Source: Alkalilimnicola ehrlichii
Lineage (GTDB): Bacteria; Pseudomonadota; Gammaproteobacteria; Nitrococcales; AK92
Assembly: GCF_003399765.1 (NCBI RefSeq)
Contig: NZ_NFZV01000001.1
Location: 345,704-409,703, forward strand
Reading direction: 5' to 3'
Length of the DNA stretch: 64,000 nucleotides
Part shown: piece by piece, positions 5,453 through 45,923 of the stretch
Position numbering within the stretch: position 1 is the stretch's first letter
Layout of the letters: the number at the start of each line of letters is the position of its first letter
Program-made: the position numbers and the translations under genes
The notes under the pieces: model-generated
Told to the model about the DNA's origin: nothing
Database searches by the model: none
Seen by the model: the letters and a program-made list of their open reading frames with translations, nothing else

Positions 5453-5669
5453 GGACGGCAGGATAGGCATGGGCCTTGCCGGCTGTCAAGGCTACCTCAA
5501 ACGAGCGTTTCGTTCAGCAGAAATTGTAAATTTTTTGCCGTTCAACAAAATTTTCGGGGATTCTAAACCCCTACTACTCCTGCTAAGAAAGCCCTTAACC
5601 TTCCCATGTCGCGCCTTGCGGGCAAGCCGCAAAGGGCGCGGCGGGGTAAGCGAAGGCGGCAGCGTTTCC

Positions 5670-24215: not shown

Positions 24216-25346
24216 TCAAAAACGATCGCAGTCGCGCCATTCGAGCTCCGCTGCGTAAGCGAACTCGATCAAATCCGGTAATACGGATAAGGCCTTGGCC
24301 TGGGTGTCGTGGAACAAGATAATCCCCTGCCGGCGCACCAGCATCAGTTTCTTGATGCGTTCCAGCATACTCTCCGAGCCGATCCGTCGGTTCCAGTCCT
24401 GCGAGTCGATATTCCACAGCACGAGCGGGTCGGCTGTCGCGTGGACGTGCGATGCGATGGCGGCATTGCGCTGCCCATAGGGAGGGCGGAAAGCAACCGT
24501 TTCCTGCTCGGGGAAGAGCTGAAGGATGAGGCGGCGCGTATCGTCGATGGAGGCTTGCCAGTCCGTCCACCGGGGGTGGGCATTATGCGCCATCCCGTGC
24601 GAGGCCAGGCAGTGATGCTCATACAGCGATGCAAGTGCTGCGGGCGAGGTCGCCTGCTTGCGCCGTTGGAGGCTTTCGCCGAGCACGAAGAACAATGCCG
24701 GGACTTTGTGCTCATTGAGTAGCGCGATATAGCGATCGGTATGACCGCCCGCCGTTGTCGGGCCATCGTCGAAACTGAGCAGGAACTGGCCGTCGTCTAA
24801 CTCGTCGCCTAGCCATTCCCCGTCGTCGAAGCGCAGAATCTCGCTGCTCGGAGAGGGGAAAAGCGCTGCCAAGCGCCATTGTTCGCGAAAATACGCCGTG
24901 TAGAAGGCCTGGCTATGCGTTAACCAAGCTGCATAGTCGGGATGAGTGGCGGCGGTCTCGGCATACGATTGGCCGAACGCGACCAGCTCGTCCCAGCTTG
25001 CGCCGGAAAAACCGCAGCTTCTGTCCTGTGACGAGCAAGACGTCGATGCCTGCCGAAAGCCGTCTAGCCACTGCCGACGTGTCGCCTCCAGCCATTGTTC
25101 CACCGACGCTTCGTGAAGTCGCCGAATGCCAAGCGCGTCGGCATTCGGGTTGTGTTGAATTAGCGTATCCAGAACAGTGGCGGATACCAGCAGCTCGGCC
25201 CGTGAGGCGGCGTCGAAAGCCGTTCGACTCTCAATCGCATGGGGCCATAGCCCGGCTTTTCCCTGGGCGAGGCTCGTTGGGCCGGCCGCATTTGCCGGCC
25301 CAACGAACAGCAGCAGGCCCATCAACAACGCTAGACGAATACGCAT
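24216..25346 (-). CDS. secreted polysaccharide deacetylase (NodB-homology domain)
   Basis: signal peptide MRIRLALLMGLLLFVGPANA; NodB motifs LSFDDGP and ASHGMAH. Confidence 0.7.
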   Translation of the reverse strand: MRIRLALLMGLLLFVGPANAAGPTSLAQGKAGLWPHAIESRTAFDAASRAELLVSATVLDTLIQHNPNADALGIRRLHEASVEQWLEATRRQWLDGFRQASTSCSSQDRSCGFSGASWDELVAFGQSYAETAATHPDYAAWLTHSQAFYTAYFREQWRLAALFPSPSSEILRFDDGEWLGDELDDGQFLLSFDDGPTTAGGHTDRYIALLNEHKVPALFFVLGESLQRRKQATSPAALASLYEHHCLASHGMAHNAHPRWTDWQASIDDTRRLILQLFPEQETVAFRPPYGQRNAAIASHVHATADPLVLWNIDSQDWNRRIGSESMLERIKKLMLVRRQGIILFHDTQAKALSVLPDLIEFAYAAELEWRDCDRF

Positions 25347-25347
25347 A

Positions 25348-26559
25348 TTACTCACCGCTCAAGCGTGCGCGCATCCGCTCAATGCCGTTGGTGTAGGCTC
25401 TATGCTCGCGTAAATCGAGTGCTTCTTGATAATGCCTGAGGGCGTCTTCCCACGCCGCGTTCGCTTCGTAAATGCGGGCGATATTGAAGTGCGAGCTTGC
25501 TTTGATGGTGGCCGCGTTGGCCCCGGAGGCCAGCGCGATGGCTTTTCGGTTGACAAATAAACCTTCCGCGCTTTTCTCTAAGCGCATATAAAGTACACCC
25601 AGATTGCTATAGGCCTGAGCGTGATCGGGGTAGTAGTCGATGGCCCTGAGGAAATGTCGCTCGGCTTCTTCCAGATCGCCGGCCTGATAGGCTGTTTCGC
25701 CCTGGCGATTGGCGGCGTCCGCTCGCATCTGCTGGGCGCGCTCGATCGTCGGCATGGAGGCGAGAGACGCCTGATCGATATAGCGCTCCATGGCCGAGCC
25801 GATTGCCTCCAGGCTGTCGAGGTTTAAGGTAAGGCCGAGGTCGTAGAACTCGCCGTCCTCGCCGATCATGAAAACCCACCATGTGTTGCCAGTCCGGTTG
25901 GGGGCGAGGGTGAACGTACGGATAAGGGTTGAACCGACGTAGACATTGACCCGCGCGTTACTGGCCGCCAAGGAGGTGCTTTCGGGCCTCGAAGTCGCGC
26001 TGTAATTGTGTACGCCGTACAAATAGCGAACGCCATGCCGACGGTTATGGATGGTGATCGTCTCGGGGCCGTATCCGTCCTGTTGGTCGATATCGAGTTG
26101 GGCGTGCTGACCGCGTGGGTTTGCGTAGTTGATGTGACCGCCTGAGCTGAATAGGTGGGCGTCGAGGTCTGCCGGCTCGCTGCCCCATTGCAGGACAATG
26201 CGCACGTCTTCCAGCTCCGTAAGAATCGGGCTCATCGCATAGGTCAGGCCGCCGCATGGGCAGTGTGCCACCAGGTTCGAGTACCCCGCCCGCCGAATGA
26301 TGAGGGTGGCATCGTCGCCGGCCGAGAGCGCCGATGTCGGTATCCGCGCGATGCCGCGGCTATCGGTATAGACCCGCTCCGAGGCGGCGCCAGGCACTTG
26401 GGTGATCACTTCGGCGTCCGCAATGACTTCGCCGTCGGTGACGGCACTCAGGACTTGGAGGTAGGAGCTGTGCAGGCGACCTTGTTGAGCATGGGCAAGC
26501 GCAAACGGCAGCAGAAGGCAGGCGGCCAATAAAACGCGGAGGGTGACGGTAGCGTTCAA
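25348..26559 (-). CDS. secreted protein with a YfaP-like (DUF2135) domain and C-terminal TPR repeats
   Basis: signal peptide; RIVLQWGSEPADLDAHLF...QLDIDQQDGYGPETITI; TPR-like C-terminus. Confidence 0.5.
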   Translation of the reverse strand: MNATVTLRVLLAACLLLPFALAHAQQGRLHSSYLQVLSAVTDGEVIADAEVITQVPGAASERVYTDSRGIARIPTSALSAGDDATLIIRRAGYSNLVAHCPCGGLTYAMSPILTELEDVRIVLQWGSEPADLDAHLFSSGGHINYANPRGQHAQLDIDQQDGYGPETITIHNRRHGVRYLYGVHNYSATSRPESTSLAASNARVNVYVGSTLIRTFTLAPNRTGNTWWVFMIGEDGEFYDLGLTLNLDSLEAIGSAMERYIDQASLASMPTIERAQQMRADAANRQGETAYQAGDLEEAERHFLRAIDYYPDHAQAYSNLGVLYMRLEKSAEGLFVNRKAIALASGANAATIKASSHFNIARIYEANAAWEDALRHYQEALDLREHRAYTNGIERMRARLSGE

Positions 26560-26722
26560 CGTGGGACTCTCTTCATTTATTTTTCGAAATGGCCTTTTTA
26601 GCGACCACTCTGTGCCGCTGCATCACACGACGTGTGAGTAGAGATAGCTAATATTACTGTACCCGAAACAGGAATCCAGCGCCCGACGGGCGCGCTTTTT
26701 CGCAAAGGGGAGGCAAAGCTGC

Positions 26723-27742
26723 CTACCCCAGTGTCAGTACCTGTTTATTCCCTTGCATTTCGCGAGCGATCCGGTGTCCGGTTAAGCGCTCGATCAGGGC
26801 GCTGTTGGTCTGAGCGTGGCTCGACAGCGGGCCGCAAGAGAAGCTTCCGCCGCCGGCGGCTACCATGGGAAGCATGATCTGATCGGCCAAGTGCTCGCAA
26901 AGCGCGGCGTCGCCATCCAGGTGGCGGCTCACCCGATGGGCCAGATTCTCGGCCACTCGTTCCGCCCGCAGGCGGTGTTTGCCCAGCTCGGCAAAACACA
27001 GCTGGACATTGCGAAACTGTAGCTCGTGGCTGAGCAGGTTACCGGGGCAGGTGGCCTTCGGGTAACGGATGTCATAGGTCGTATCGGCAAGCCGGCACAT
27101 TTTTCGATAGCTGTGAATTTCTCGCTCGGCCACCTCGTGACGAATATTGCTGAGATAGGCCGTTACCCGGCTATGGACTAGCTCGCCCCTATCCGTAATT
27201 TGAATAGGGTGTAGGGGGCCGGGGGAGAGGCTGGCGACCCATTGGCCGCCGCCTGCTGGAAAGTAACCCCAGCGCTCGATGTCAATTTCAAGTTTGGCGC
27301 CCATGGCCTTGAGCAGCGGCAAAAAGGCCGCGGTCAGGAAGGTCAGGGGCGGTGCCATGGGATTATGGGTGCCGCCGGTAAAACGGACCTTTGACGCCCC
27401 CGAGGCGTTTAGCAATGGCAGAAACACGGTCTGAAATACCAGCGTGGTACTGCCGGCGCTGCCGACATCGAAATGATAATTGCCGGCGGCGACCGCACCC
27501 GGCTCGAAGCGGAGCGCCTGCGAGCCAAGTTCGGCGCCGGAAACCTCGGCGTTGCAAATCGCCTGGGCGGCGTTTACGCAAGCTAAGTGTTGACGCATCA
27601 AGCCGGGCTTGGAGCGGTTGCGGCGAATGTTCGTGAGGGAGATGCTCAAGCCGTACAGCATCGCCAGCGTCAGGCTGGTGCGGAGGATTTGGCCTCCGCC
27701 TTCGCCCTCGCTACCGTCGATTTCTATTGTTCTTATCGGCAC
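26723..27742 (-). CDS. rtcA: RNA 3'-terminal phosphate cyclase
   Basis: 339 aa; GGGQILRTSLTLAML...GSAGSTTLVFQTV matches RtcA along its whole length. Confidence 0.9.
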   Translation of the reverse strand: MPIRTIEIDGSEGEGGGQILRTSLTLAMLYGLSISLTNIRRNRSKPGLMRQHLACVNAAQAICNAEVSGAELGSQALRFEPGAVAAGNYHFDVGSAGSTTLVFQTVFLPLLNASGASKVRFTGGTHNPMAPPLTFLTAAFLPLLKAMGAKLEIDIERWGYFPAGGGQWVASLSPGPLHPIQITDRGELVHSRVTAYLSNIRHEVAEREIHSYRKMCRLADTTYDIRYPKATCPGNLLSHELQFRNVQLCFAELGKHRLRAERVAENLAHRVSRHLDGDAALCEHLADQIMLPMVAAGGGSFSCGPLSSHAQTNSALIERLTGHRIAREMQGNKQVLTLG

Positions 27743-27747
27743 GACGG

Positions 27748-28966
27748 TTACCCTTTCACGCAGACAACTTGCTTAAGTGTGTAGACGATTTCCACCAGAT
27801 CCTTTTGGGCCGCCATCACCGCGTCGATGTCTTTATAGGCGGCCGGCGTTTCGTCCACCACACCGGCATCTTTGCGACACTCCACGCCTTGGGTGGCCTC
27901 GGCATGTTGCTCGACGGATACCCGCTTCTTCGCTTCGGTGCGAGACATGACGCGTCCGGCACCGTGGCTGCACGTGCAGAAGCTTTCTTCGTTACCCAGC
28001 CCCTCACAATGAAAGAGCGCGCGCCCATACTGCCGGGGATAATGCCCAATTCGTCCTTTTTCGCGGAAACCGCGCCCTTACGCGTCAGAAGTACGTCTTT
28101 GCCGTAGTGGTGTTCGCGGGCAACGTAGTTGTGGTGGCAGTTTACCGCTTGCTCGACGCCGAGTACGCGACGCTCCAGCGTTTTTGCCACGGCATCGAGC
28201 GTGCGCTGCATCATGATCTCTCGGTTGATGCGGGCGTAATCTTGGGCCCAAGCGACGGCTTCGACGTAGTCGTTGAAGTGTGCGGTGCCTTCCGACAGGT
28301 ACGCCAGGTCTTTATCGGGCAGATTGACGAACATACGTTCCATGTCCTTCTTCGCCAGCTCGATAAAGTGAGTGCCGATACGGTTGCCGACGCCGCGCGA
28401 GCCGGAATGCAGCATGACCCATACGGACTGGTGTTCGTCCAGGCATAGCTCTATGAAGTGGTTGCCGGTGCCCAGCGTCCCCAGATGATTCGCGTTGTTG
28501 GTTTTCTTCAGTACCCGGTGCTTTTCCGCCAGCACGTCGAAGCGTGCCGAGAGTTGCTCCTTCCAGGCATGGGAGACGACCTCGGGCAGGTCATGCCAAG
28601 CGCCGCGATCTCTTTTGCCACGGGTGCTGGAACGCCCGTGGGGAACTGCGCGCTCAATCGCAGTGCGCAGCGGGGCGAGGTTATCGGGTAGATCGCGAGC
28701 TTTCAGGTCAGTCTTCACCGCCATCATTCCGCAGCCGATATCAACGCCCACCGCTGCCGGAATCACAGCTCCGACGGTGGGGATAACGGAGCCGATAGTA
28801 GCCCCTTTGCCAAGGTGAACATCCGGCATCGCCGCGACCCATTGATGGACAAAGGGCAGCGAGGCGATGTTTTTAGTTGTTGCCGGGCCTTATCTTCAAA
28901 CGGCACCCCGAGCGTCCAGCTCTTGATCGGAACGCCGTTGTCGACGTTGGTCATTTCGTAGTTCAT
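27748..28966 (-). CDS. rtcB: RNA-splicing ligase RtcB, two apparent 1-nt homopolymer frameshifts (~28035 and ~28867)
   Basis: three ORF pieces (28763-28966, 27816-28829, 27748-27948) align end to end with E. coli RtcB (MNYE..., MPDVHLGKG, C-terminal VECRKDAG...VVCVKG); one extra A in an A5 run and one extra G in a G4 run restore a ~407-aa protein. Confidence 0.85.
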
Positions 28967-28996
28967 ACCGCTCTTTCCTGTCTGTGAATTCTAAAC

Positions 28997-29019
28997 TGGG
29001 GATTACACGTATCGTGCCA
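28997..29019 (-). promoter_or_regulatory. candidate sigma54 (-24/-12) promoter for rtcBA
   Basis: minus-strand TGGCACG-atac-GTGTA about 30 nt upstream of the rtcB start; the -12 element deviates from TTGC. Confidence 0.3.
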
Positions 29020-29113
29020 ACGGCTCCGTGTGGCCCTAACGTTTTGATGCGAAAGAGGATGCAGTTTTTCCAGTGCCTAGAGAGTTGTGTCTAAAGCTAT
29101 CGAAAAAGATACG

Positions 29114-30724
29114 CTAAACGCTTTTTCGATCGGTCAGCTCTTCGAAGCTTAGGTTGAATTTGGCCAACATCTGTCGGAGACGGTGAGAGTCGTTGGTGGA
29201 ACGCTTGCGGGTGCGGGAGCGGTTAAACAGCAGGCGTCCGGCGTCGGAGAGGCTGCGGCATTGGGAGCAGACATCGATGATTTTAAGCAGTTGCCATTGG
29301 TCCAGCAGATCGATCTCCTGAAGCTCCGCTTCCGGAATATAATCGGCCAGATCGATGTTTGCTTCCGGTCCATGCGTTTGACTTCGGGGCTGCCAGTGAC
29401 GCTTGAGGCGGCCGATCTCGTCGTTAACGTTTTGCTCGGTGATTCTGCCGCCGTCCGCCAGGGTGCTCATCCGCTGAATCGCTGCATTCAGGTCGCGGAA
29501 GTTGCCGCGCCAGGTGGCCTCGGGGCTGAGGGCAAAGTCGAGAAAGCGCTGGCGCGCGGCTTTGTTGAGGCTCACTTTGTGGCCGTGCTGGATTTCCGCT
29601 TGCTGTAGTTCGTAATCGAGGTTTGGCTCAATATCCTCGCGACGATCTTTGAGGCCGGGGAGTCGATAAGACCACAGGTTGATGCGGGTCAGTAAGTCTT
29701 CCCGAAACTCGCCCCGCTGCACCTGCGTATGAAGGTCGCGATTGGTGCCGGCGATTAGCTGAAAGTCGCTTGCCTGCGGCGTGTCGGAGCCGACCGGATA
29801 AAACTGCTTCTCTTCTATGGCGTGCAGCAGCATGGCTTGCTCGTCCAGCCCCAGTTCACCGATTTCGTCGAGAAACAGCAGGCCGCGGTTCGCCTTGGAT
29901 AGCAACCCTTGGCGGGCGTGCTGGGCGCCGGTGAAGGCGCCTCGGGTGTGGCCGAACAAGGCCGACATGGCGCCATCGCCGCGAATGGTAGCGCAGTTGA
30001 CGGCGACGAACTCTCCTTCGATGAGCGAGCGTTTTCGCTTGAGTTCATAGATACGCTTGGCGAGCTGGGATTTGCCCGCCCCCGTGGGGCCAGTGATGAG
30101 GATCGGTGCCGTAGAGCGGATGGCGACCTTCTCGACCTGCTGGATGAGCTCATTGAAAGCCCGGTTGCGGGTGGCAATTCCGGACTTAAGAAATTCCGTG
30201 CCCTCCAGATGCTGGTTTCGGAAGCGGGAGTTGATGAGGTCGTATTTTGATAGATCGAGATCGATGATCTGGTGGTTGCCGGCCGCGCATCTCTCGCCCC
30301 GCGTCGGCGAGGTTTGGAGGATTTGCGCCGGTATGTAATTGGCTTCGCAGAGCAAAAACCAGCAGATCTGCGCCACGTGGGAGCCGGTGGTGATATGCAG
30401 CAGGTAGCGCTCTTCCTGAGGCTTGAAAGGATAGTTTTCGGCAAAGTCCAGCAGAGTGCTATAGACGTGCTCGAAATCCCAGGCATCGGTAAAGTTGATC
30501 TCGGTGAGCTTAACCTCGCTTCCCGGCGATACGGTTTCTATATCGGCGCCGATGTTGTTGGCTAGCCGTTCGTCCCGCCGGTCATGCAGCAACTCCAGCC
30601 GATCGACGATCAGATCCTCTTGCATGAAAATGCCTACCGTAGGTCGCCAAGCATCCCACCGTTTAACGCCTTTTCCCTTATTGTCCATGACGGAGCCGAG
30701 CAGCCCGATGACGACGGTTTTCAT
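29114..30724 (-). CDS. rtcR: sigma54-dependent transcriptional activator RtcR (CARF + AAA+ + HTH)
   Basis: aligns with E. coli RtcR from MKTVVIGLLGSV... through GAGKS, GAFTGA and ESELFGH-like motifs to the C-terminus; start at MKTVV, with the upstream extension of the ORF rejected. Confidence 0.9.
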   Translation of the reverse strand: MKTVVIGLLGSVMDNKGKGVKRWDAWRPTVGIFMQEDLIVDRLELLHDRRDERLANNIGADIETVSPGSEVKLTEINFTDAWDFEHVYSTLLDFAENYPFKPQEERYLLHITTGSHVAQICWFLLCEANYIPAQILQTSPTRGERCAAGNHQIIDLDLSKYDLINSRFRNQHLEGTEFLKSGIATRNRAFNELIQQVEKVAIRSTAPILITGPTGAGKSQLAKRIYELKRKRSLIEGEFVAVNCATIRGDGAMSALFGHTRGAFTGAQHARQGLLSKANRGLLFLDEIGELGLDEQAMLLHAIEEKQFYPVGSDTPQASDFQLIAGTNRDLHTQVQRGEFREDLLTRINLWSYRLPGLKDRREDIEPNLDYELQQAEIQHGHKVSLNKAARQRFLDFALSPEATWRGNFRDLNAAIQRMSTLADGGRITEQNVNDEIGRLKRHWQPRSQTHGPEANIDLADYIPEAELQEIDLLDQWQLLKIIDVCSQCRSLSDAGRLLFNRSRTRKRSTNDSHRLRQMLAKFNLSFEELTDRKSV

Positions 30725-30871
30725 ATTATCTATCTCGATAAAAATTATTCTAATTCGATAATTATTATCGAGCTGTTCCTCTTTTGCAATTCCAACGTTT
30801 TTTCGTGAATGAGCGTGTGATTTTTTTAAAAACAGAGGGTTAAATTTTTCTGCTGGGCTTTCTGAACAACT

Positions 30872-30887
30872 TGGCACGTTCATTGAT
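30872..30887 (+). promoter_or_regulatory. candidate sigma54 promoter divergent from rtcR, directed at the tRNA-like element
   Basis: TGGCACG-ttca-TTGAT with consensus -24 GG spacing; lies in the AT-rich rtcR upstream region, which also holds the palindrome CGATAAAAATTATTC/GAATAATTATTATCG (30727-30775). Confidence 0.4.
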
Positions 30888-30992
30888 ACCTCTCCTGCGA
30901 CTGCGGGATCGGCCACTACAGGGTTCTGATTCAAACGTCAGACCGGCATCGGTTTCCATGAAACTGGATGTTCCGCCACCCCGCAATCGCCG

Positions 30993-31064
30993 CGCTTGTT
31001 AGCTCAGCGGGTAGAGCAATCAGTACAGACTGATCGGTCGCAGGTTCGACTCCTGCACAAGCTC
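30993..31064 (+). ncRNA. tRNA-like element, degenerate tRNA or Y-RNA-like module
   Basis: cloverleaf with a D-arm (GCTC-agcgggta-GAGC), a 5-bp anticodon stem enclosing only a 6-nt loop (tacaga), a T-arm (GCAGG-TTCGACT-CCTGC) and a 6/7-bp acceptor stem with a C:T mismatch; no encoded CCA; a second T-arm copy at 31081-31097. Confidence 0.5.
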
Positions 31065-31426
31065 CTGGGAAGCCGCAAGGCCGGGGTTCGACTCCCCGAT
31101 AAAAAGCGCAAACGGAGCATTGCTCCAAAACGGTACGAATGCCTGGGCAAGTTTGCCCAGGCCAGTAGTGCCAACGCCGATGGGCAGCGTGTGAGGCCCT
31201 GACGCTTTCGGTCCGGATGAGTATGCAGGGTGCGGGGGGCACCCTGCACGCGTTCGGTCTCGTCAACGGTCGCTCGGCGGCCCGTGTTAGCCCGTTTGTT
31301 AAAGGGGTAGCGCGGCAACCGACGAGCGGTTGATCGGGACGGCATTCGGCACCCGGAAGGGAATAGCCTCACACCCCCCATTGGCTTTTACTAAGCATTA
31401 AGCTGGATAACAGCAGGAGAGTCGCA

Positions 31427-32575
31427 ATGTTGGGGTTTACGAAGAAAATGGTGGTTGCAGATGACGAGCGCGTGTTGCTGTTCAAACACCGTCAGTTCCA
31501 GCGGGTTCTGCAGCCTGGATGCCATCGCTTTTTCGATGGATTCAATAGGCTCTCTTTCGACGTGCTTAAGGTTCATCGGGCGGGGGTTGTGCATGAGCAA
31601 TTGGATCTACTGCTTAAGAAGCCGGCATTTTCCAGCCAGGTAGAGATATACCTCATGCAGGAAAACGAAGTAGGCGTGGTGTATGTGGACGGTAAGCCGC
31701 AGCGGGTTCTAGCGCCCGGCTCGCGTTGGGTGACCTGGAAGGACGCCCTGAATGTGGAGGTCCAAAGCTATGCGCTGGAGCAACTGGCTCCGATTAACGA
31801 GGTACTGCTAGCCGGGCTGTTGCGCGAAGGCTTGGATAAGGCCGGCGGTCAGTGGTGCATTAACCATGCCCTAGTACCGGACGGCCATATCGGCTTATTG
31901 TTCGAGAACGGCAAGCTGAACACGACCCTACAGCCTGGGCGTTACGGTTATTGGGCGTTTAATCGAGACGTTCAGATCCAGATTTTCGACCTCAGGTTGC
32001 AGATGGTGGACATCTCCGGGCAGGAAATCCTGACCAAGGATCGAGTGAGCTTACGACTGAATTTAAATGCCGTTTACCAGTATGCCGACGCCGTAAAGGC
32101 CGCGGAACAGCTCAGAAACGCGGGCGATTACATCTACAAGCGCTTGCAGCTTGCGTTGCGAGAAGCAGTGGGCACCCGCACTCTGGACGAGTTATTGGCG
32201 GATAAGGATGCGATCTCCAACGTGATTCTCAAGGATTGCCGAGACGCCCTAAAGGAATACGGGATCACCTTAGACCGGGTGGGGGTAAAGGACATCATTT
32301 TGCCGGGCGAGATGAAGGAGATTTTGAATCAGGTCGTGCAGGCGCAGAAGTGTGCGGAGGCGAATCTGATCAAACGTCGGGAAGAAACAGCGGCCACCCG
32401 CTCTTTGAGCAACACCGCGAAGATGATGGAGAAAAACCCGACGCTGCTGCGACTCAAAGAGTTGGAGGCACTGGAAAAAGTGGCCGAGCGGATCGACTGC
32501 ATCAATGTGTACGGCGGATTGGATACGGTAATGAACGATTTGGTTCGCCTAACGGATAAACGGGTAGCGGGATAG
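31427..32575 (+). CDS. SPFH/band-7 domain protein
   Basis: 382 aa; central SPFH domain and a coiled-coil C-terminus. Confidence 0.6.
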   Translation: MLGFTKKMVVADDERVLLFKHRQFQRVLQPGCHRFFDGFNRLSFDVLKVHRAGVVHEQLDLLLKKPAFSSQVEIYLMQENEVGVVYVDGKPQRVLAPGSRWVTWKDALNVEVQSYALEQLAPINEVLLAGLLREGLDKAGGQWCINHALVPDGHIGLLFENGKLNTTLQPGRYGYWAFNRDVQIQIFDLRLQMVDISGQEILTKDRVSLRLNLNAVYQYADAVKAAEQLRNAGDYIYKRLQLALREAVGTRTLDELLADKDAISNVILKDCRDALKEYGITLDRVGVKDIILPGEMKEILNQVVQAQKCAEANLIKRREETAATRSLSNTAKMMEKNPTLLRLKELEALEKVAERIDCINVYGGLDTVMNDLVRLTDKRVAG

Positions 32576-32652
32576 GTACGACTGAAAGAGAGCGGCTGCC
32601 GACAGGCAGCTCGCTCTATTAAACGTCCGATTTTTACCGCAAGAGGGTCGTG

Positions 32653-33500
32653 CTAAGCCTCGGGCATCGCCCCCACGTGACGTAAGATGTCTTTCGTAAT
32701 CGAAAGTCGGGCGTCGGCGGAGTCTGCGTGTTCCATATCAAGGTTCAGTGCAAAAAAGTACACCTCGCCGTCGCGCTCGACGTAACCGACAAACCATCCC
32801 AGTCCAGGCGTCGCAGGATCGCCAAACCCCGCCCATCCCGTTTTGCCGCTGAGGCGGTACTCCGGCGTTTCCTCCAGCACGAAGAGGTCTTTTGCGGTCT
32901 TCGTCGTTGCCGGCGATAGGCCTAACTCATCGAAGTAAAAGCGTTGCAAAAAGTCGACCTGGGCATCGGCCGAAACGCGCAGCGCCCCCGTCAACCAAAA
33001 GCGATCGATAGCGCCGCTCATATCGCCATTGCCGTACTTAAAGGCGTCCAAGTAGGTTTGCATGTGTTCCGCACCGATACGGCGGGCCAGCTCTTGGTAA
33101 TACCAAACCACAGAGTTTAAAAACGCGGTTTCAAGCGTATGCTCCTCTAACCACGCGGGTGGCCACCACGCTTGGGGCGGTGCGACGGCGTCATCGCGTT
33201 CCAGCGCAAACGCCGGCCCGTTGGCAACGCCTGTCTCCAACGCGATCAAGGTGTTCGGAATCTTGTAGGTCGATGCGGGTAGAAAGGCCGTTTGCGCCCG
33301 TTGCGGGTTATGGCGGATGACACGCTGGGCCTGCGGGTCCAGCAAAACAAAGGCTCCGTTCCGGCCTTCAAAAAGGGCGCAAGTTCCGCGGCGTCCGAAT
33401 CAGCGGGCGCTGCCGCAACGGCGGGCGAGGGCGGCTCAGACGAGCAGGCCGACAAGGAAAGCGAGAACACTAATAATGGCAATAAATGTCGCAGCTGCAT
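32653..33500 (-). CDS. class D (OXA-type) beta-lactamase, apparent 1-nt homopolymer frameshift near 33355
   Basis: motifs STYK (the S-x-x-K active site), SVV, YGN, KTG and WFVGY; lipoprotein-type signal peptide MQLRHLLPLLVFSLSLSAC in ORF 33246-33500; a T5 to T6 correction restores APFFEGRNGAFVLLDPQAQRV. Confidence 0.8.
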
Positions 33501-33640
33501 TCATCTAACCTGTGGTCGGTTGAGTTTGGATTAATTATTTGCCGAATTATCATAATGTAGAACGTCTTCTTTTGCTTTTGCCCCCAGGAAGAAATCAGCA
33601 TCGCTTTTATGCGGTGGGTATAAGGGGCGGCCGGTTGGTC

Positions 33641-34167
33641 TTAAGTTGCTTCGCAGGGCTGAGCCGTCATTAGGTCGACATACGCGCCGGCAATCAAATC
33701 CTGCGGCTCGATCGCTAGTTCCGCCATCAAGCGTTGCGCAATCTTCACGCCTTCGGCTTCCGTTTGCGCCGGGGTGAGAACAACCTCCAGTTCGATAAAA
33801 CGGCCAAGCTCGGCCACCTCGTCTAGATGTATTCTCGTTTGTCCGACGAGAAAAACCGTGCGGCACTTTTTGACGACGGCGCGGACGCCGAGCGCTGCCG
33901 CCAGAGCCGCTTTGAGGGAGGCCGGGTCATCGGTCGGCGAGCGAATATAGGTCGAGGTCTTCGGACCCGAGGCGTCGGGGCGGTCGTACTGGATCAACTC
34001 GCCCGTACCGTCGCCAAAGGCCCTAAGCTTCAGTCTCCCCTCGGGTACCTGAAAAAAGTGTCTTCCTGCTCAAGCCGCTGCGGCGGGCCGTCCGCGAGCC
34101 TCGCCGCTATGTGGGTTTGCCCCTCGAAGTCGCTTGAGCGGGCTTTTATCTCGATATTACGTGCCAT
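33641..34167 (-). CDS. CYTH-domain protein (class IV adenylate cyclase / CyaB-like), apparent 1-nt homopolymer frameshift near 34030
   Basis: N-terminus MARNIEIKAR...QEDTFFRYPRG in ORF 34030-34422 and C-terminus RIHLDEVAELGRFIELEVVL in ORF 33641-33997; a G4 to G5 correction restores ...GRLKLRAFGDGTGELIQYDRP. Confidence 0.6.
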
Positions 34168-34520
34168 CTTCCCTCCGCTAATGCGGTCGGCTCGATCAAC
34201 GGGGTGCGCGTTTGCGTCGTTGCCGACCTGGTTCGTTAACCACACCTTAGCGCATTTTCCCGCCGCTTCGGTTTGCCCGCGCACCGGTAAATGGCTCTTC
34301 CACGAGTACGCCTTCGCGTTTCGTTTTGCCGGTTCAGCGTGTCGGCCAAGCGAAAGATGATCGGCCACTAGGCGCTGGGGAAGCATTCGTCCCCAGGCGA
34401 CATTCCGCTGGTTATTTGACAATTAATGCAGTTGAGACTTATTCTCAATTAAAATCTAAAACCCATAACTTCTATTCCGGGTGTCACAACTAAACGCCTG
34501 TACCGCGGGAAGGATATCCC

Positions 34521-35069
34521 ATGGGAGCGAATTCCCAAGCAAGGAAAGATCTACTGGCGGTTCTTTATAACAATCATCATCGCTGGCTGGTGCATTGGCT
34601 GCGCAAGAAGATCGGCTGCTCGGAGCAGGCCGCCGACCTGGCGCAAGATAGTTTCGTCAGGGTGATGGCCAGCCAGACCAATTTACACGCACTCTGCGAG
34701 CCTCGGGCTTATCTCACCAGAATCGCCACCCGTCTGCTGATCGACAGCGTTCGTCGCCGCCAAGTCGAACAGGCTTGGTACGAGAGCTGGGTGGGACTCT
34801 ACGGTAACGACGCCAGCATGGAACCCGCAACCGAGGCCTTAGTAGAAATGCTCGATTTGCTGGTGGCTATAACACGCATGCTCGAAGGCCTGCCGGAGAA
34901 GCCTCGCAAAGCCTTTCTCTGGAGCCGTCTGAAGGGCATGCCCTATGCCGAGATTGCCGCCCGTTTGGGCGTCTCGGTGGTCAGGGTAAAACAGTACATC
35001 GCCCGCGCCCTGCTGCATTGTCACGACATCCTTGAAGGTGAGGCAAACGGTGAAGGTCCCCGCCACTGA
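34521..35069 (+). CDS. ECF sigma factor, FecI-like
   Basis: 182 aa; sigma70 regions 2 and 4; immediately followed by a FecR-like gene. Confidence 0.8.
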   Translation: MGANSQARKDLLAVLYNNHHRWLVHWLRKKIGCSEQAADLAQDSFVRVMASQTNLHALCEPRAYLTRIATRLLIDSVRRRQVEQAWYESWVGLYGNDASMEPATEALVEMLDLLVAITRMLEGLPEKPRKAFLWSRLKGMPYAEIAARLGVSVVRVKQYIARALLHCHDILEGEANGEGPRH

Positions 35070-35094
35070 ATCTGCTACTACGCCCAGCCGCACC

Positions 35095-36045
35095 ATGATC
35101 GAGCAAGCTGCCCACTGGCATGCAACGCTTGGCTCGGAAACCGTGACCGAGGAGGAAAAGCAGGCGTGTGCAGCATGGCGGGCGGCGCATCCCAGCCATG
35201 AAGCAGCCTTTCAGCGCTTGCTGCGTGTGTGGGCGCCGCTGGAATCGCTAAACGACGAACTCAAGGAGCCGGCCCTGTCTACCGTTCAGGCGGTGGCGGG
35301 GCGCAAACTGCGTCGGCGCGGCGCACGGTTGGCATCGCTAGCGGGGGCGGTGTTACTAAGCGGTTGGCTGAGCTTTCAGTGGCTGTTACCGGCAGGGATG
35401 GGCGCCGATCATGCCACGCTCGCCGGAGAGCGTCGCGAGCTATTGCTTGACGATGGCAGTCGTCTGTTACTAAACAGCAGAACGGCGATTGATGTCCGCT
35501 ATAGCGATCGAGAGCGCCGCATCGTGCTGCATCGCGGAGAGCTGCTGATCGATGTCGGCCGGGATGCTGCGCGCCCATTTATCGTTGCGACCCGCTACGG
35601 TACCGCGGAAGCGCTGGGTACCCGCTATGCCGTCAGGCAGACCGCCGACGATGCGGCGGTGGTGACGGTGGCGCACTCCCGCGTCAGGTTTTGCCCGGCA
35701 CCGGAGGCGAGCGCCGAGCGTTGTCGGCTTTTGCGGGAGGGGGAGCAAAGCCGGGCCGGCGCCGACGGCGCAGCGACGTCCGCGATCGAGGTGGATGTCG
35801 AAGCGGCCACCGCCTGGACGAGGGGGCGGCTGGTTGTCGACGACTGGCCGTTGCCGCAAGTGCTCTCAGAGCTTGGTTACCATCGCCGCGGTTGGTTGAT
35901 TTTCCACGCGGATTCACTGCAAGACTTGCGCGTGTCCGGCGTTTTCCCTATCGACGATACCGACTTGGCCCTGGCCATTCTGGAGGCGAACTTACCGCTC
36001 ACTATCTCCCGCTATGGGCCTGTCACCCGAATCGCCCGCCACTAG
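35095..36045 (+). CDS. FecR-like anti-sigma factor / transmembrane sensor
   Basis: IEQAAHWHATL N-terminal anti-sigma domain, central TM segment and a periplasmic FecR domain. Confidence 0.75.
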   Translation: MIEQAAHWHATLGSETVTEEEKQACAAWRAAHPSHEAAFQRLLRVWAPLESLNDELKEPALSTVQAVAGRKLRRRGARLASLAGAVLLSGWLSFQWLLPAGMGADHATLAGERRELLLDDGSRLLLNSRTAIDVRYSDRERRIVLHRGELLIDVGRDAARPFIVATRYGTAEALGTRYAVRQTADDAAVVTVAHSRVRFCPAPEASAERCRLLREGEQSRAGADGAATSAIEVDVEAATAWTRGRLVVDDWPLPQVLSELGYHRRGWLIFHADSLQDLRVSGVFPIDDTDLALAILEANLPLTISRYGPVTRIARH

Positions 36046-36144
36046 CGGGCTCTTATAAGCAGAAAAGCCTGCTCGACTCTATACCTTTTGCTCCGGCGCT
36101 CGTCATAACCCATAGGTAAACGAGAATGGGAATTATTTTTATTT

Positions 36145-38882
36145 ATGGGGTGCAACAAACTCATCCGCCGGACTGTCGGGTGGTGCGTGCTGTTGGCTGG
36201 GGGGCTGCTGGCGCTGACGCTTCACGCCGCCGAATCCGCGCATCGCTTCGACATACCGCCAGGCGGTCTTGACCAAACGCTGACGCAGTTTGCCTTGCAG
36301 GCAGGGCTTGTTCTGTATCTCGATCCTGCCTTGGCTCAGGGGCAAACCAGCCCGGGCCTGCAAGGCGAGTATCGGCCCCGGCACGGCCTGTCGCTCTTGC
36401 TAAGCGGTACCGGCCTCACCTATCGAGAGGATGCCGACAGCGGCGCCATCGCTATCGTACCTCGCGCCGCTATCGCCGCCAGCGAGCGGCAGTCGCTGCC
36501 GGCGCTACTGATCGAGGCGCGGCCCTGGAGTCCGGGAGACGACGCCTACACCGGTTCGGGCTCGGCCAATGTGCTCACACAGCGGGATATCGAGCTTTTT
36601 CGGGGTAGCTCCGTGGGCGATATCTTCCAGGGCACGCCCGGCGTGCTGGTGGGGGAGAACCGCAACAGCGGCGGCCTGGACCTCAACATCCGCGGCATGC
36701 AGGGGCAGGGGCGGGTGCCGGTGCTGATTGACGGCAGCCGGCAGGAAACGACGGTACACCGCGGCTATGCCGGCGTCGCTTCCCGTAGTTATGTGGACCC
36801 GGATCTGATCGGCGGCATTCGTATCGACAAAGGGCCGAGCATGACGGCCGAAGGCAGCGGCGCGGTCGGTGGGCTGGTCAGCATGCGCACCCTGGAGCCC
36901 AACGACATCATCAAGGACGGCAAGGATTTCGGCGTCCGGCTTCGAGGTACCGCCATCGGCAATAACAGCGGTCGCACTCCTAGCCCCGGCACGCCGGCGG
37001 GTTATAACACAGGCAATCCGTTTGCCGGCGCAGCGGTCTACCGCACGGACTGTATCGTTGCGAGCCTGTGCCAGGGCGAGTACGCACTGCCCGAACGCTT
37101 CGCCCCGGAGGCCGGTATGGATCGCCCCGGCCTGCTGGAGCCGAAAAGCCATGCCGCCAGCGTGGCCGTTGCCGGGCGCTTGGCCTGGGCGGATCTGCTC
37201 GCCGCTTATGCGGAGCGCCGCCAGGGCAATTATTACGCCGGCAGGCACGGTCGCACGCCGTCCATCGACCTCTCCGATGTACGCGAATTGCCCTTCTACA
37301 CCGAGGTGCGGCCGGTACTGCGCGGCGCTTCCCGATTCCGAGGCGGGGAGCGCATCGTTAACAGCAACTACGAGAGCCAGTCGGTTCTACTCAAGGGCCA
37401 GCTCTGGCTGCCGCGCGAGCAAAACCTGGAATTAAGCTACCTGAATTACCGCAGTACCTACGGCGAGTTGATGCCCTCGCAACTCATGTGGTTCGACCAA
37501 GTCCGGCAGACGGCCTCAAGCGAGGTAACGGCAAACACCTACACCGCCCGTTACCGCTGGGATCCGTTCGCCTCCGATTATTTCGACCTACGCGCCAATC
37601 TTTGGCATACCGATACGCGTAGCAGTAACGACCCCTACTTCGTGCCGGGCGCCGATGGCGAGCCGATGGAAATGGGCGGAACCGGCTCCGAACACTATCG
37701 CCGCTGGGGAGCGGACCTTAGCAACAGCATGCGCTTTGAGGGCTTCGGCCGGCTGGAGGCCCGCTACGGCGGTTCCGCGCAATTAGAAAAGCTCCGCCCC
37801 CGCGGCGAGATCGCCGAGGACACCCCGAGCGACAACCGCGACGGCGATCGCCATGAGCTTAGCGCGTTTGCCGCGCTGGAATATCAACCGCTACCTAGCG
37901 TCACCTTAGAAGCCGGTATCCGGCACACCCGCTTCCGCTCCAAAGACAACACGCCCATGGCGATCGACCCGGGCAACGAATACTGCCCCGAGCCCGACGG
38001 CGACGGCGGCTGCCTCCCCTTTACCTACCGAAGCCGCAATCACGGCACCGTGCCTATGGCCGGCCTTACCTGGGAGCCCGTCGCCGGCATTCGGCTCTAT
38101 GCCCGCTACGCCGAGGCGCTCCGCATGCCCAGTTTGTTCGAAACCACCCAAGGATTCTCGGTGGCGCCGACCCCCGGCCTGGACCTAAAACCGGAGCACG
38201 CTTACCACCGCGAAGTGGGCATCAATATGCTGCGCCATGGGTTGCTCGGCGAAAGCGACCGACTTGGGTTACGCATCGCCTACTTCCGCAACCGCGTTAA
38301 AGACTATATCACCCGCACGCCGCGCAACCTGTGGGAGGAGGAAACCGACAACTTCCAGCAAAACATGTTCCGCATCCGCAACATCGAAAGCGCAAGCTTT
38401 CATGGCTACGAAGTGTCGGCGGAGTATGACGCAGGGTGGTTGTTCGGAGAGTTCGGCGGCACCTGGTACAGCAACATCGAAACCTGCCACGAAGGTAGCT
38501 ATCGTCGTCAAAGCTGCACCGATTACGGCGTGCCGCGCAGCTACATCAATAACATGATCCCCCCAACTGGCATAGCAGCGCCACCCTCGGCACACGGCTA
38601 TTCCAGCAGCAGCTGGAGCTTGGCGCTCGCGGCACCTTCATGGGGCAGCGCACCCCGCTTCCTCCCACTGACAGCTCGCAATTCCAGAGCTTTGCCGCGC
38701 CGGTGTCCTGGCACCGCTATCGCGTGTACGACGTGTTCGCCAGCTACCGGCCCAACGACACCGTCAGCGTCGATTTCAACATCGACAACGTCACGGACCG
38801 TTACTACATCGACGCGCTCAGCCTAGGGCTGGTGCCTGCTCCCGGGCGCACGGCCCGGTTGAGCCTGACGCTTCATTACTAA
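36145..38882 (+). CDS. TonB-dependent transducer (receptor with N-terminal STN signalling domain), apparent 1-nt homopolymer frameshift near 38562
   Basis: signal peptide, STN domain (FDIPPGGLDQTLTQFALQAGL), plug and barrel; C-terminal ...LSLTLHY found in ORF 38640-38882; a C6 to C7 correction joins the frames. Confidence 0.8.
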
Positions 38883-43684: not shown

Positions 43685-43844
43685 GAAATGCCGCATCATT
43701 TTCCTTCACCCCCCTGGCCGCGCGAGGGGGCGGCGTCTCCTGGCGCCCGCCGTACCGTCCCGTAAGCTCTCTACGGTCGCCGAGGCTGCCTCTTGCAAAT
43801 GTCGCCGATTATCTATATGTTGTTCTTCGTCTTCAATGCTTGCA

Positions 43845-44020
43845 CCATATGTTGTGGTGCTGCAAGCAGGGAATCCGGTGCGAATCCGGAACTGTCGCGC
43901 AGCGGTGTAGGGGAGCGAAGGTCGCCGGGCGTAAAGCGCCAGGCACTGTCCGATCAGGATGGGAAGCCGCGACCGTAGGTGCTCGTTACGAGCGTGCCCC
44001 TGAGTCCGAATACCTGCCGA
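43845..44020 (+). ncRNA. cobalamin (AdoCbl) riboswitch
   Basis: GGTG...AAGCAGGGAAtCCGGTGcGAATCCGGaaCTGtCGCGCAGCGGT...GCCAGGCACTG...GGGAAG...GAATACCTGCC (B12 box) matches the consensus core; located in the nrdD leader. Confidence 0.85.
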
Positions 44021-44165
44021 AGACGGCCGCCACCACCGGCGGTTAGCCCGAGCCTTCGCGTCAAAGGCGGCGGGAGCGGTGTTGCGTCTGTGCGATGACG
44101 AACACCGTCCTCCTGTGCTTGTGCGATGGCCGGTTGTGGAACCACACGCGCAGATGGGATGCAAC

Positions 44166-45923
44166 ATGTCGAACCTCTTTCTGTCCCCACACGATAACGT
44201 CTCGCCGTCGAACGCCGGCTATCGCATCGACGTTTCCAATACCATCAACGAGTACCTGCAACGGCAGGATTGGCGAGTTAACGCCAATGCCAATCAAGGC
44301 TATTCGCTGGGCGGTTTGATTCTGAATAGCGCCGGCAAGATGGTGGCCAATTATTGGCTTGAGCAGGTTTACCCGGCCGCCATCGGGCAAGCGCACCGCG
44401 ACGGCGATATACATATTCACGATCTGGATATGCTCTCGGGTTACTGCGCCGGCTGGTCGCTGCGGACGTTGCTGCATGAAGGGCTCAACGGGGTGCCGGG
44501 CAAAGTCGAAGCCGCGCCGCCCAAGCATTTGTCCTCGGCGGTGGGGCAGATCGTTAATTTCCTCGGCACGCTGCAGAACGAATGGGCCGGCGCCCAAGCC
44601 TTCAGCTCCTTCGATACCTATCTCGCGCCCTTCATTCGCAAGGATAAGCTCGCCTACGCCGAGGTCCGGCAATGCATACAGGAGCTGATCTACAACCTCA
44701 ACGTGCCGTCGCGGTGGGGGACGCAAACGCCGTTTACGAATCTTACCTTCGATTGGACGTGCCCGGAGGATTTAAAAGATCAGGTGCCTATCGTCGGCGG
44801 CGAGGAAATGCCGTTTAGCTACGGCGAGCTGCAAACCGAAATGGACATGATCAATCGCGCCTACATCGAGGTCATGACCGAGGGCGATGCCAAGGGCAGG
44901 GTGTTTACCTTTCCCATTCCGACTTACAACATCACGGCGGATTTTCCCTGGGACAGCGAGAACGCCGAGCGGCTGTTCGCGATGACGGCCAAATACGGGC
45001 TGCCGTATTTCCAGAACTTCGTGAATTCGGATCTTGAGCCGCATATGGTTCGCAGCATGTGCTGCCGCCTGCAATTGGATTTGCGCGAGCTACTCAAACG
45101 CGGCAACGGGCTATTCGGCAGCGCCGAGCAAACCGGCTCGCTGGGTGTCGTCACCGTCAATTGCGCGCGGTTGGGCTACCTATATCGAGGCGACGAGGCC
45201 GGATTATTTGCCCGGCTGGATACGCTGCTGGCGCTTGGCCGCGACAGTCTGGAGATCAAGCGGCGGACTATTCAGGCGTTAATGGACAACGGTCTCTTTC
45301 CCTATACCAAGCGCTACCTGGGCACCCTGCGCAATCATTTCTCGACGCTGGGCGTTAACGGCATTAACGAGATGATCCGCAACTTCAGCGCCGACGCCGA
45401 CGACCTTACCACCGCGCACGGCCATGCGCTTGCGGTTCGCTTGCTCGATCGCATCCGTGCGCGTATGACGGAGTTTCAAGAGGCGACGGGGCATCTTTAC
45501 AACCTGGAAGCGACGCCCGCCGAAGGGACGACCTACCGCTTCGCCAAGGAAGACCGCAAGCGTTACCCGGACATTATCCAGGCAGGCACGCCCGAGAATC
45601 CTTATTACACCAATTCGTCACAGCTGCCTGTGGGTTTCACGGACGACCCGTTCGAGGCGCTTGAGCGGCAGGAAGCGCTACAGACTCGCTATACCGGCGG
45701 CACCGTGCTGCATCTTTATATGGGCGAGCGGATATCGAGCACCGATGCCTGTCGCCGCTTGGTGCGGCGCGCGTTGGAGCGTTTTCGCCTGCCCTACATC
45801 ACGGTGACGCCAACCTTTTCCATTTGCCCTATTCACGGCTACCTGAGCGGAGAGCACGAATTCTGCCCCCGCTGCGACGAAAACTTAATCGCTAACCAAC
45901 AAAAGGAGGCGCACGATGCCTAA
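44166..45923 (+). CDS. nrdD: anaerobic ribonucleoside-triphosphate reductase (class III) large polypeptide, without ATP cone or glycyl-radical motif
   Basis: about 585 aa; ends with a Zn-ribbon-like CPIH...CPRC; followed by a glycyl-radical ORF and nrdG; the start is ambiguous (44153 or 44166). Confidence 0.65.
   Translation: MSNLFLSPHDNVSPSNAGYRIDVSNTINEYLQRQDWRVNANANQGYSLGGLILNSAGKMVANYWLEQVYPAAIGQAHRDGDIHIHDLDMLSGYCAGWSLRTLLHEGLNGVPGKVEAAPPKHLSSAVGQIVNFLGTLQNEWAGAQAFSSFDTYLAPFIRKDKLAYAEVRQCIQELIYNLNVPSRWGTQTPFTNLTFDWTCPEDLKDQVPIVGGEEMPFSYGELQTEMDMINRAYIEVMTEGDAKGRVFTFPIPTYNITADFPWDSENAERLFAMTAKYGLPYFQNFVNSDLEPHMVRSMCCRLQLDLRELLKRGNGLFGSAEQTGSLGVVTVNCARLGYLYRGDEAGLFARLDTLLALGRDSLEIKRRTIQALMDNGLFPYTKRYLGTLRNHFSTLGVNGINEMIRNFSADADDLTTAHGHALAVRLLDRIRARMTEFQEATGHLYNLEATPAEGTTYRFAKEDRKRYPDIIQAGTPENPYYTNSSQLPVGFTDDPFEALERQEALQTRYTGGTVLHLYMGERISSTDACRRLVRRALERFRLPYITVTPTFSICPIHGYLSGEHEFCPRCDENLIANQQKEAHDA

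Follow-up and report, generated by a model that had tools for sequence, protein, structure and literature searches.

RtcR is the best-studied CARF-domain sensor that switches on RNA repair upon tRNA damage. The E. coli rtcR/rtcBA locus was reportedly described by Genschik et al. in 1998 and the Salmonella rsr–yrlBA–rtcBA operon by Chen et al. in 2013/2014, and Burroughs and Aravind are said to have proposed, in 2016, an RNA-repair system composed of a band-7/SPFH protein, a tRNA-like RNA (b7a-tRNA) and RtcB. Here we analyse an rtc locus in 64,000 nucleotides of Alkalilimnicola ehrlichii DNA (contig NZ_NFZV01000001.1, positions 345,704–409,703; hereafter, the window), in which rtcR, rtcB and rtcA share one strand and a tRNA-like RNA followed by a band-7 gene lies on the other. 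Gene identities, conserved DNA motifs, a conserved and covarying RNA structure and the association of the band-7 gene with the tRNA mimic are directly observed, and the locus is likely to be an RtcR-controlled RNA-repair regulon of the band-7/b7a-tRNA type, with two transcription units under one activator.

In E. coli, the rtcBA promoter comprises an upstream activating sequence (UAS), an IHF site and weak −24/−12 elements (Kotta-Loizou et al. 2022, PMC9650030), and Salmonella RtcR is activated by tRNA halves (Hughes et al. 2020, PMC7790460). The association of band-7, b7a-tRNA and RtcB was predicted by bioinformatics in 2016 and is known here through the summary given in a preprint from the Wolin laboratory (bioRxiv 10.1101/312249); in that summary, b7a-tRNA strongly resembles an authentic tRNA, is encoded beside a band-7 protein and RtcB, and is without experimental validation. 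In P. aeruginosa, PA4581.1 (‘tRNA-Arg4’) is located between rtcR (PA4581) and the operon PA4582–PA4585; according to a 2026 paper, this RNA lacks CCA and reaches about half the level of canonical tRNAs in quantitative reverse-transcription PCR.

The window resembles each of these systems in part. As in the band-7/b7a-tRNA system, rtcR is divergent from a tRNA-like RNA and then band-7, with RtcB and RtcA encoded in the same locus, but the window rtcBA genes stand behind rtcR with a candidate promoter module of their own rather than downstream of band-7, and of the second tRNA-like unit only a small hairpin and a T-arm hairpin remain. Unlike in P. aeruginosa, no gene for an RlaP nucleotidyltransferase or a PA4584-like protein was found at the window's locus. 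With E. coli (PMC9650030), the window shares an RtcR equivalog, adjacent rtcB and rtcA, and a putative sigma-54 promoter, with UAS and IHF site, that is equally far from rtcR, whereas the E. coli divergent unit is rtcBA itself, without band-7 or a tRNA-like RNA, and its −12 element has the canonical GC (E. coli-type locus L039, TGGCACGACGGTTGCA) where the window has TTGAT and GTGTA. The likeness to Salmonella (Hughes et al. 2020, PMC7790460) consists in an operon of RtcR/sigma-54 type in which the first gene encodes a putative RNA-binding scaffold and is accompanied by a tRNA-mimicking non-coding RNA; in contrast to Salmonella, the window has no TROVE/Ro60 gene, its RNA lies upstream rather than downstream of the protein gene, and this RNA has an unpermuted tRNA topology and no Rfam YrlA match. 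Given that a system of this kind has already been described by comparative genomics, the window locus is a rearranged member of a known RNA-repair system and not a new system.

Gene order in the window and in related loci

The rtcR product (Pfam RtcR, 7e-81; Sigma54_activat, 2e-50; and AAA_lid_14) matches the NCBIfam equivalog RNA_repair_RtcR at 790.8 bits (cutoff, 650), and the rtcA product matches equivalog NF003246 at 402 bits (cutoff, 352). The start codon of rtcR is the ATG at 30724 rather than the TTG at 30934. The rtcB and rtcA genes are adjacent and in the same locus as rtcR, from which rtcB is separated by a spacer of 147 bp (28967–29113); all three genes lie on the minus strand, and the E. 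coli layout, with rtcBA divergent from rtcR, is absent from the window, a difference of gene arrangement rather than of mechanism. Instead, the unit divergent from rtcR consists of a leader RNA, which includes the tRNA-like element, and the band-7 gene, the element and the gene being on the same strand and 362 nt apart. The band-7 protein matches stomatin structures at E ~1e-19, and its N-terminal 150 residues have no family assignment.

A first-pass annotation of the window, made from the letters and their reading frames, had placed rtcR, rtcB and rtcA on the minus strand in that order, identified RtcR as a sigma-54 activator with a CARF domain, reported no rsr gene, and described a split cluster in which rtcR separates an RNA from rtcBA. 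These statements hold: the coordinates were confirmed, Pfam and the NCBIfam equivalog agree on RtcR, and a tblastn search of the window with the TROVE + vWA_Ro60 protein (Rsr) of related locus L012 found no rsr (best E = 1.8). Overlooked at that stage were the band-7/SPFH gene and the broken reading frame of rtcB.

We compared the locus with 80 RtcR loci, obtained from a one-genome-per-species scan using the window RtcR as the query, the gene content of which was mapped by tblastn. The first divergent gene is rsr in 35 loci and band-7 in 23, and most others (including the E. coli-type locus L039) begin directly with rtcB; the usual order in band-7 loci is band-7, rtcB, further genes and rtcA. 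Only in the closest RtcR relatives (61–79% identity) does rtcB lie behind rtcR on the same strand, namely in Marinobacter zhejiangensis (L001; the closest of all, with 79% identity), two Gynuella metagenome-assembled genomes (L002 and L005), Litoribacillus (L003) and Reinekea (L006). The Litoribacillus locus has rtcR and then rtcB only, without band-7 or a tRNA mimic, and L005 combines both arrangements, with one rtcB copy following band-7 and another following rtcR, and has the appearance of an intermediate state. The layout had been called non-canonical in the first-pass annotation; rtcBA is indeed co-directional with rtcR, unlike in E. coli, but the arrangement is not unique to the window. 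Since only the closest relatives share it, the window layout is, judged from gene order, a clade-specific rearrangement of a band-7-type locus and not a singularity. In Pseudomonas-type band-7 loci, rtcB and rtcA were also seen to flank a gene for RlaP (PF10127, RNA repair pathway DNA polymerase beta family; in L024, 1085–1885 on the minus strand).

As assembled, the window rtcB gene runs through three frames owing to two 1-nt deletions, next to 27999 and 28869, and one base added at each site restores an open reading frame of 406 aa. A public record of the same contig, NFZW01000001.1 (GCA_003399715.1; L081), has both bases and an intact 406-aa RtcB. Over 9.6 kb (window 25116–34725), the two versions differ by nine single-base indels (27999, 28869, 30821, 31233, 31628, 33157, 33369, 33851 and 34051) and no substitutions; NFZW01000001.1 lacks the base at 31628, which breaks band-7 there, whereas band-7 is intact in the window. 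The indel at 30821 falls in a T-run and that at 31233 in a G-run, and the tRNA-like element is identical in both versions. A true rtcB pseudogene was at first plausible, as the other window genes seemed intact, and was ruled out by the intact copy in the public record. Because of that copy, and with each version breaking a different gene, neither frameshift is biology; those in rtcB are assembly indels of the homopolymer type, and frameshifts elsewhere in the window are therefore to be distrusted.

Candidate promoters on both sides of rtcR

Both units are preceded by a candidate enhancer, an IHF-like site and weak sigma-54-like −24/−12 elements, in the order reported for the E. coli rtcBA promoter (Table 1). 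These motifs are rare in the window: TGGCACG-N5-TG occurs three times in 64 kb (0.77 expected), two of the three being the rtc sites, and TATC-N6-GATA occurs four times (0.32 expected; a count of four was reached in 0 of 100 shuffles), with two of the four copies standing upstream of the two rtc promoter sites. In the rtcB-proximal site, the −24 element TGGCACG occupies 29019–29013. The candidate enhancer region of the divergent promoter (30727–30775) contains a perfect palindrome, TCGATAA-TTA-TTATCGA (30755–30771), and overlaps sigma-70-like hexamers that could serve rtcR itself.

Comparison across the family, with promoter positions and enhancers counted over 81 loci, places the divergent site within a general pattern. 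TGGYAY is found on the divergent strand 100–300 nt upstream of rtcR in 76 loci (median, 155 nt), among them loci of the rsr type and the E. coli-type locus L039; in the window, 147 nt separate the −24 element from the rtcR start; given this shared position, the window site is the positional orthologue of the classical RtcR-dependent promoter. Repeats of the TTATC-N6-GATAA type abut the rtcR start codon across the family (the strict pattern in 39 of the 81 loci), and a AATCAAnnnnTTA block, matching the IHF consensus, is present 30–55 nt upstream of the −24 element in most loci.

The rtcB-proximal site is shared by the relatives that share the layout. L001, L002, L003, L005 and L006 carry TGGCAY-N5-TTGNW at the same position upstream of rtcB, together with a GATC/TATC-N5-6-GATAA motif and an IHF-like equivalent (ATCAAnnnnTTA), and the module of enhancer, IHF-like site and −24 element is thus kept in five of the five relatives with co-directional rtcB. 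In L002, genes encoding DUF1186 and TerB proteins are inserted between rtcR and rtcB, yet rtcB retains its promoter module, and in L003 this module is the only candidate RtcR target. On the basis of this conservation, both sites are probably targets of RtcR and sigma-54, and the rtcB promoter probably arose by duplication or transfer of a whole enhancer–promoter module. No intrinsic terminator was found on the minus strand between rtcR and rtcB, so basal read-through into rtcBA is possible, and transcription from the rtcR promoter may add to basal rtcBA expression.

The first-pass annotation had pointed out a TGGCACG-N4-GTGTA element in the 147-bp rtcR–rtcB spacer, a TGGCACG-ttca-TTGAT element pointing away from rtcR and an AT-rich palindrome by the rtcR start. 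All three are present, the last of them resolving into two palindromes, and the check that had been proposed—comparison of the flanking regions in related genomes—found both promoter sites conserved in position. The deviation that it noted in both −12 elements is real but not peculiar to this locus, because both promoters in the window's clade have, as a rule, a −12 TTG with a non-C base after it.

The tRNA-like RNA and its structured leader

The tRNA-like element starts 106 nt downstream of the plus-strand sigma-54-like site (an earlier estimate was about 110 nt) and forms a full cloverleaf with conserved D and T arms and without an encoded CCA. Its anticodon loop has 6 nt, or 4 nt (ACAG) on a stem extended to 6 bp, rather than the canonical 7 nt with a conserved anticodon. 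According to ARAGORN, the interval from rtcR to band-7 holds a single tRNA-like gene or a tandem pair in most band-7 loci, in the same orientation as band-7, and the ‘anticodons’ of these copies are very diverse (Met, Ile, Asn, Leu, Ser, Arg, Val, stop and undefined) and differ between close relatives. In an alignment of 25 copies from Gamma- and Betaproteobacteria, the D-arm (UAGCUCA..GG.UAGAGC) and T-arm (GGUUCGAnUCC) are invariant and compensatory changes support the cloverleaf in 15 of 20 pairs, whereas the anticodon loop has 4–6 nt in 14 copies, often as UUCG-type tetraloops, and 7 nt in 10. A covariance model built from the tRNA-like alignment (R1) scores the window element at 79.7 bits, and of the 23 band-7 loci, 20 have a copy scoring 59 bits or more in the interval from rtcR to band-7; none was detected upstream of rsr in the 35 rsr loci, which have weak Y-RNA-like matches downstream of rsr instead. 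The remnant of a second module in the window (31072–31098) corresponds in relatives to either a complete second tRNA-like unit or an acceptor/T-arm minihelix.

Two further observations concern individual copies. In L024, a YrlA match at 5607–5658 on the minus strand (33.4 bits, model positions 28–81; below the gathering score of 69) bridges two tandem tRNA-like units, from the T-arm of the first to the D-arm of the second, and the tandem b7a-tRNAs and the permuted tRNA-like domain of YrlA may be evolutionarily related. Copies L002_1, L051_2 and L056_2 (alignment A1) combine a CUCAUAA anticodon loop (CAU) with a C1:A72 mismatch, two features that recall initiator tRNA-Met and may give a clue to the family's ancestor.

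The tRNA-like element is embedded in a leader of approximately 530 nt, from the promoter to the band-7 start codon, that has a fold z-score of −6.5 (0 of 100 shuffles as good). A second model (R2), of the 5′ domain, was built from 11 Pseudomonas and betaproteobacterial loci and matches 17 other loci (E ≤ 1e-5). Among these matches, 92% of cells are paired and double changes affect 16 of 25 pairs; none of 500 shuffles attains these values, and slid controls are 38–57% paired. In the window's clade, P3 and P4 are 98.6% paired, and both partners have changed in 6 of 12 pairs (six-sequence alignment, pairs assigned by hand); it is this alignment that supports the 5′ domain there, because R2 scores the window weakly. 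In the 3′ domain, helix 31132–31136/31168–31172 encloses a GAAU/CAGUA internal loop, which is loop-E-like, and the hairpin 31141–31162. In 14 other loci, two homologous long-range helices close approximately 200 nt just upstream of the ribosome-binding site (94% paired; 11 of 23 pairs compensatory, compared with 2–4 in slid controls). GUGCC (31168–31172) can pair either with GGUAC upstream (31132–31136) or with GGCAC downstream (31348–31352), both pairings showing compensatory changes relative to L001 and L004 when read by eye, and the alternative pairing may act as a conformational switch in the leader.

Neither leader domain, 5′ or 3′, is represented by a family in Rfam 15. No conserved protein was found in the leader: three open reading frames overlapping 30931–31381 give only frame-hopping fragments, and only against the closest relative, which ruled out a small leader open reading frame. 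Loci with conserved covarying leader domains include L016, L024, L027, L041, L047, L051, L056, L064, L065, L070 and L076. Of all aspects of the locus, the extended structured leader alone may be new, the 2016 system being compared here as it is summarized in the citing preprint (bioRxiv 10.1101/312249).

Table 1 Features of the rtc locus (window coordinates; minus-strand motifs are given in their reading direction)
Feature	Position	Strand	Remarks
rtcA, RNA 3′-terminal phosphate cyclase, 339 aa	26723–27742	−	GTG start; Pfam RTC 3e-73
rtcB, RNA ligase	27748–28966	−	Pfam RtcB matches spread over two frames
rtcB-proximal sigma-54-like promoter TGGCACGatacGTGTA	29019–29004	−	TGGCACG-ATAC-GTGTA
IHF-like site CATCAAAACGTTA of the rtcB promoter	29037–29049	−	Between enhancer and −24; 8 of 9 specified positions of WATCAANNNNTTR
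Candidate RtcR enhancer (UAS), rtcB promoter	29098–29111		TATC-N6-GATA; 3 nt past the rtcR stop codon
rtcR, sigma-54 enhancer-binding protein, 536 aa	29114–30724	−	RtcR/CARF-type N-terminal domain
Candidate RtcR enhancer (UAS), divergent promoter	30727–30775		TATC-N6-GATA (30727–30740) and TCGATAA-TTA-TTATCGA (30755–30771)
IHF-like site AAACAGAGGGTTA of the divergent promoter	30830–30842	+	7 of 9 specified positions
Divergent sigma-54-like promoter TGGCACGttcaTTGAT	30872–30887	+	TGGCACG-TTCA-TTGAT; predicted start ~30897–30900
5′ leader domain	30897–30992	+	Closing stems P1/P2, T-arm-like hairpin P3 (one-base bulge) and long hairpin P4, forming a three-way junction
tRNA-like element (b7a-tRNA)	30993–31065	+	Rfam tRNA 45.5 bits; ARAGORN ‘tRNA-???’, abnormal anticodon loop
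Remnant of second tRNA-like module	31072–31098	+	GCC-GCAA-GGC hairpin and T-arm-like hairpin CGGGG-UUCGACU-CCCCG
3′ leader domain	31114–31352	+	Hairpin 31114–31126; helix 31132–31136/31168–31172; hairpin 31141–31162; long-range helix 31168–31179/31340–31352
Band-7/SPFH (stomatin-like) protein, 382 aa	31427–32575	+	Pfam Band_7 3e-35

Elsewhere in the window, a cobalamin riboswitch (Rfam RF00174; 76 bits, E = 6e-17) is located at 43820–44035 on the plus strand, upstream of a 640-codon open reading frame (44004–45923). A region at 34494–38826 on the same strand encodes an extracytoplasmic function sigma factor (Sigma70_r2/r4_2) and a FecR-type anti-sigma factor (DUF4880 + FecR), followed by a 906-codon open reading frame, and looks like a typical surface-signalling cassette.

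Proposed regulation and its meaning for the family

Binding, transcription and RNA function, as we infer them, would proceed as follows. By extension from known RtcR, tRNA fragments ending in a 2′,3′-cyclic phosphate would relieve the auto-inhibition of RtcR by its CARF domain. The activator, in which a CARF-like sensor is joined to an AAA+ sigma-54 activator domain and a DNA-binding domain, would most likely bind TATC-N6-GATA on both sides of its own gene, and RtcR oligomers, together with bending by IHF, would activate sigma-54 RNA polymerase at both promoters. Unit 1 (plus strand, predicted start near 30898) would carry the ~530-nt structured leader—with the 5′ three-way junction, a complete tRNA mimic without a functional anticodon loop, the second-module remnant and the closed 3′ domain—and then the band-7/SPFH gene. 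Unit 2 (minus strand, predicted start near 28993) would express rtcB–rtcA from the second copy of the enhancer, IHF-like site and −24 element, possibly together with read-through from rtcR. By analogy with Ro60 and Y RNA and along the lines of the 2016 proposal, the tRNA mimic, probably either cut from the leader or acting within it, would be the RNA partner of an SPFH oligomer. The bound mimic could assist or protect tRNA repair by RtcB/RtcA, or could act as a decoy for anticodon nucleases that cannot cut it; the missing anticodon loop fits the decoy idea.

Several observations weigh against this regulon. Neither −12 element (TTGAT, GTGTA) has the canonical GC, which 58 of 76 family members possess; the window has TGA and TGT there, and GC is likewise lacking in 15 of 76 relatives. 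TATC-N6-GATA is a candidate RtcR binding motif that we infer purely from its conservation, and the T-run indel at 30821 shifts the enhancer-to-promoter spacing by 1 nt between the two contig versions. On the window, R2 scores 11.6 bits (30886–30994), in the right place but no better than random. In addition, PA4581.1 of P. aeruginosa is reported in the 2026 paper not to be induced along with the Rtc proteins; given that this homologue is not co-induced, the tRNA-like RNA may also be made from another promoter, and a weak sigma-70-like match is present at 30735–30762 on the plus strand.

The promoter evidence bears on another possibility, in which the divergent site is the sole genuine promoter of the two, transcription that starts at the rtcR promoter reads through into rtcBA, and the spacer copy, TGGCACG-N4-GTGTA, is a fortuitous or decayed match. 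The poor −12 (GTGTA) is in keeping with this, as are the lack of a detectable terminator between rtcR and rtcB and the weakness in vitro of even the E. coli promoter (PMC9650030). However, all five relatives with the same layout have promoter, IHF-like site and palindrome in front of rtcB, including L002 with its two intervening genes, and both types of motif are rare in the window yet co-located; we consider read-through as the sole route to rtcBA improbable. The chief alternative concerns the RNA and holds that the leader, including the tRNA mimic, acts only in cis, adjusting the stability of the band-7 mRNA or its translation (by alternative pairings or RNase P/Z processing, for example). 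In its favour, no intrinsic plus-strand terminator was found from the tRNA-like element to band-7, the 3′-domain long-range helices stop immediately before the ribosome-binding site, and 31168–31172 has two mutually exclusive partners that covary by eye. The D and T loops are nevertheless invariant, and so strong a constraint on tRNA shape suggests recognition by tRNA-binding factors; the P. aeruginosa homologue accumulates to about half the level of real tRNAs, and the parallel Ro60 module works with trans-acting Y RNAs (PMC7790460 and bioRxiv 10.1101/312249). Cis and trans roles are also mutually compatible, and an exclusively cis-acting leader seems to us unlikely, although its share of the probability is appreciable.

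Two further views of the element itself have far less to recommend them. As an orphan YrlA-like Y RNA, left after the loss of rsr, it would occupy the same position in the regulon as the Salmonella Y RNAs, and L024 has the partial, sub-threshold Rfam YrlA match; the first-pass annotation had likewise set the element beside the Salmonella Y RNAs and noted the lack of rsr. That framing did not survive: neither YrlA nor Y_RNA has a match at E ≤ 10 in 28800–31500, for which an Rfam E-value scan gave only tRNA, and the cloverleaf is normal and unpermuted, which together rule out a YrlA/Y RNA identity. Moreover, rsr-type loci carry their Y-RNA-like matches downstream of rsr and not before the first gene, and the element co-occurs with band-7 and not with rsr; the band-7/SPFH gene that directly follows it argues that this is no orphan, and the idea is very improbable. 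An ordinary decoding tRNA gene, or a decaying, functionless tRNA pseudogene, would account for an Rfam tRNA score above the gathering threshold, the tRNA-Arg annotation of the P. aeruginosa homologue and the 7-nt loop kept in 10 of 25 homologues. A decoding function is difficult to reconcile with an anticodon loop of 4–6 nt in both contig versions, with ‘anticodons’ that vary between close relatives and frequent UUCG-type tetraloops, and with the missing CCA and 1:72 mismatches, whereas covarying stems and invariant D and T loops across Gamma- and Betaproteobacteria argue against decay, and we give either variant scarcely any credence.

The window locus leaves the known logic of the band-7/b7a-tRNA system unchanged, and its clade offers a handle on that system. 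The band-7/RNA unit is naturally uncoupled from the ligase/cyclase unit under what is probably the same activator, the candidate RtcR operator TATC-N6-GATA occurs twice in one locus, which would make footprinting and reporter tests straightforward, and the tRNA mimic forms part of a conserved RNA that is far larger and outside the Rfam families. More tentatively, b7a-tRNA might be, instead of a stand-alone pseudo-tRNA, one module of a large and hitherto undescribed structured RNA of approximately 0.5 kb, made from the RtcR/sigma-54 promoter, that assembles with the SPFH oligomer into a tRNA-repair or tRNA-decoy ribonucleoprotein functionally parallel to Ro60–Y RNA, a possibility that we find rather doubtful. 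If true, the ~0.5-kb RNA would consist of a 5′ three-way junction that includes a T-arm-like hairpin, one or two tRNA-like units and a closed 3′ domain that contains long-range helices and a loop-E-like internal loop, and its natural separation, together with the SPFH gene, from rtcBA in this clade would make the RNA/SPFH unit an autonomous module.

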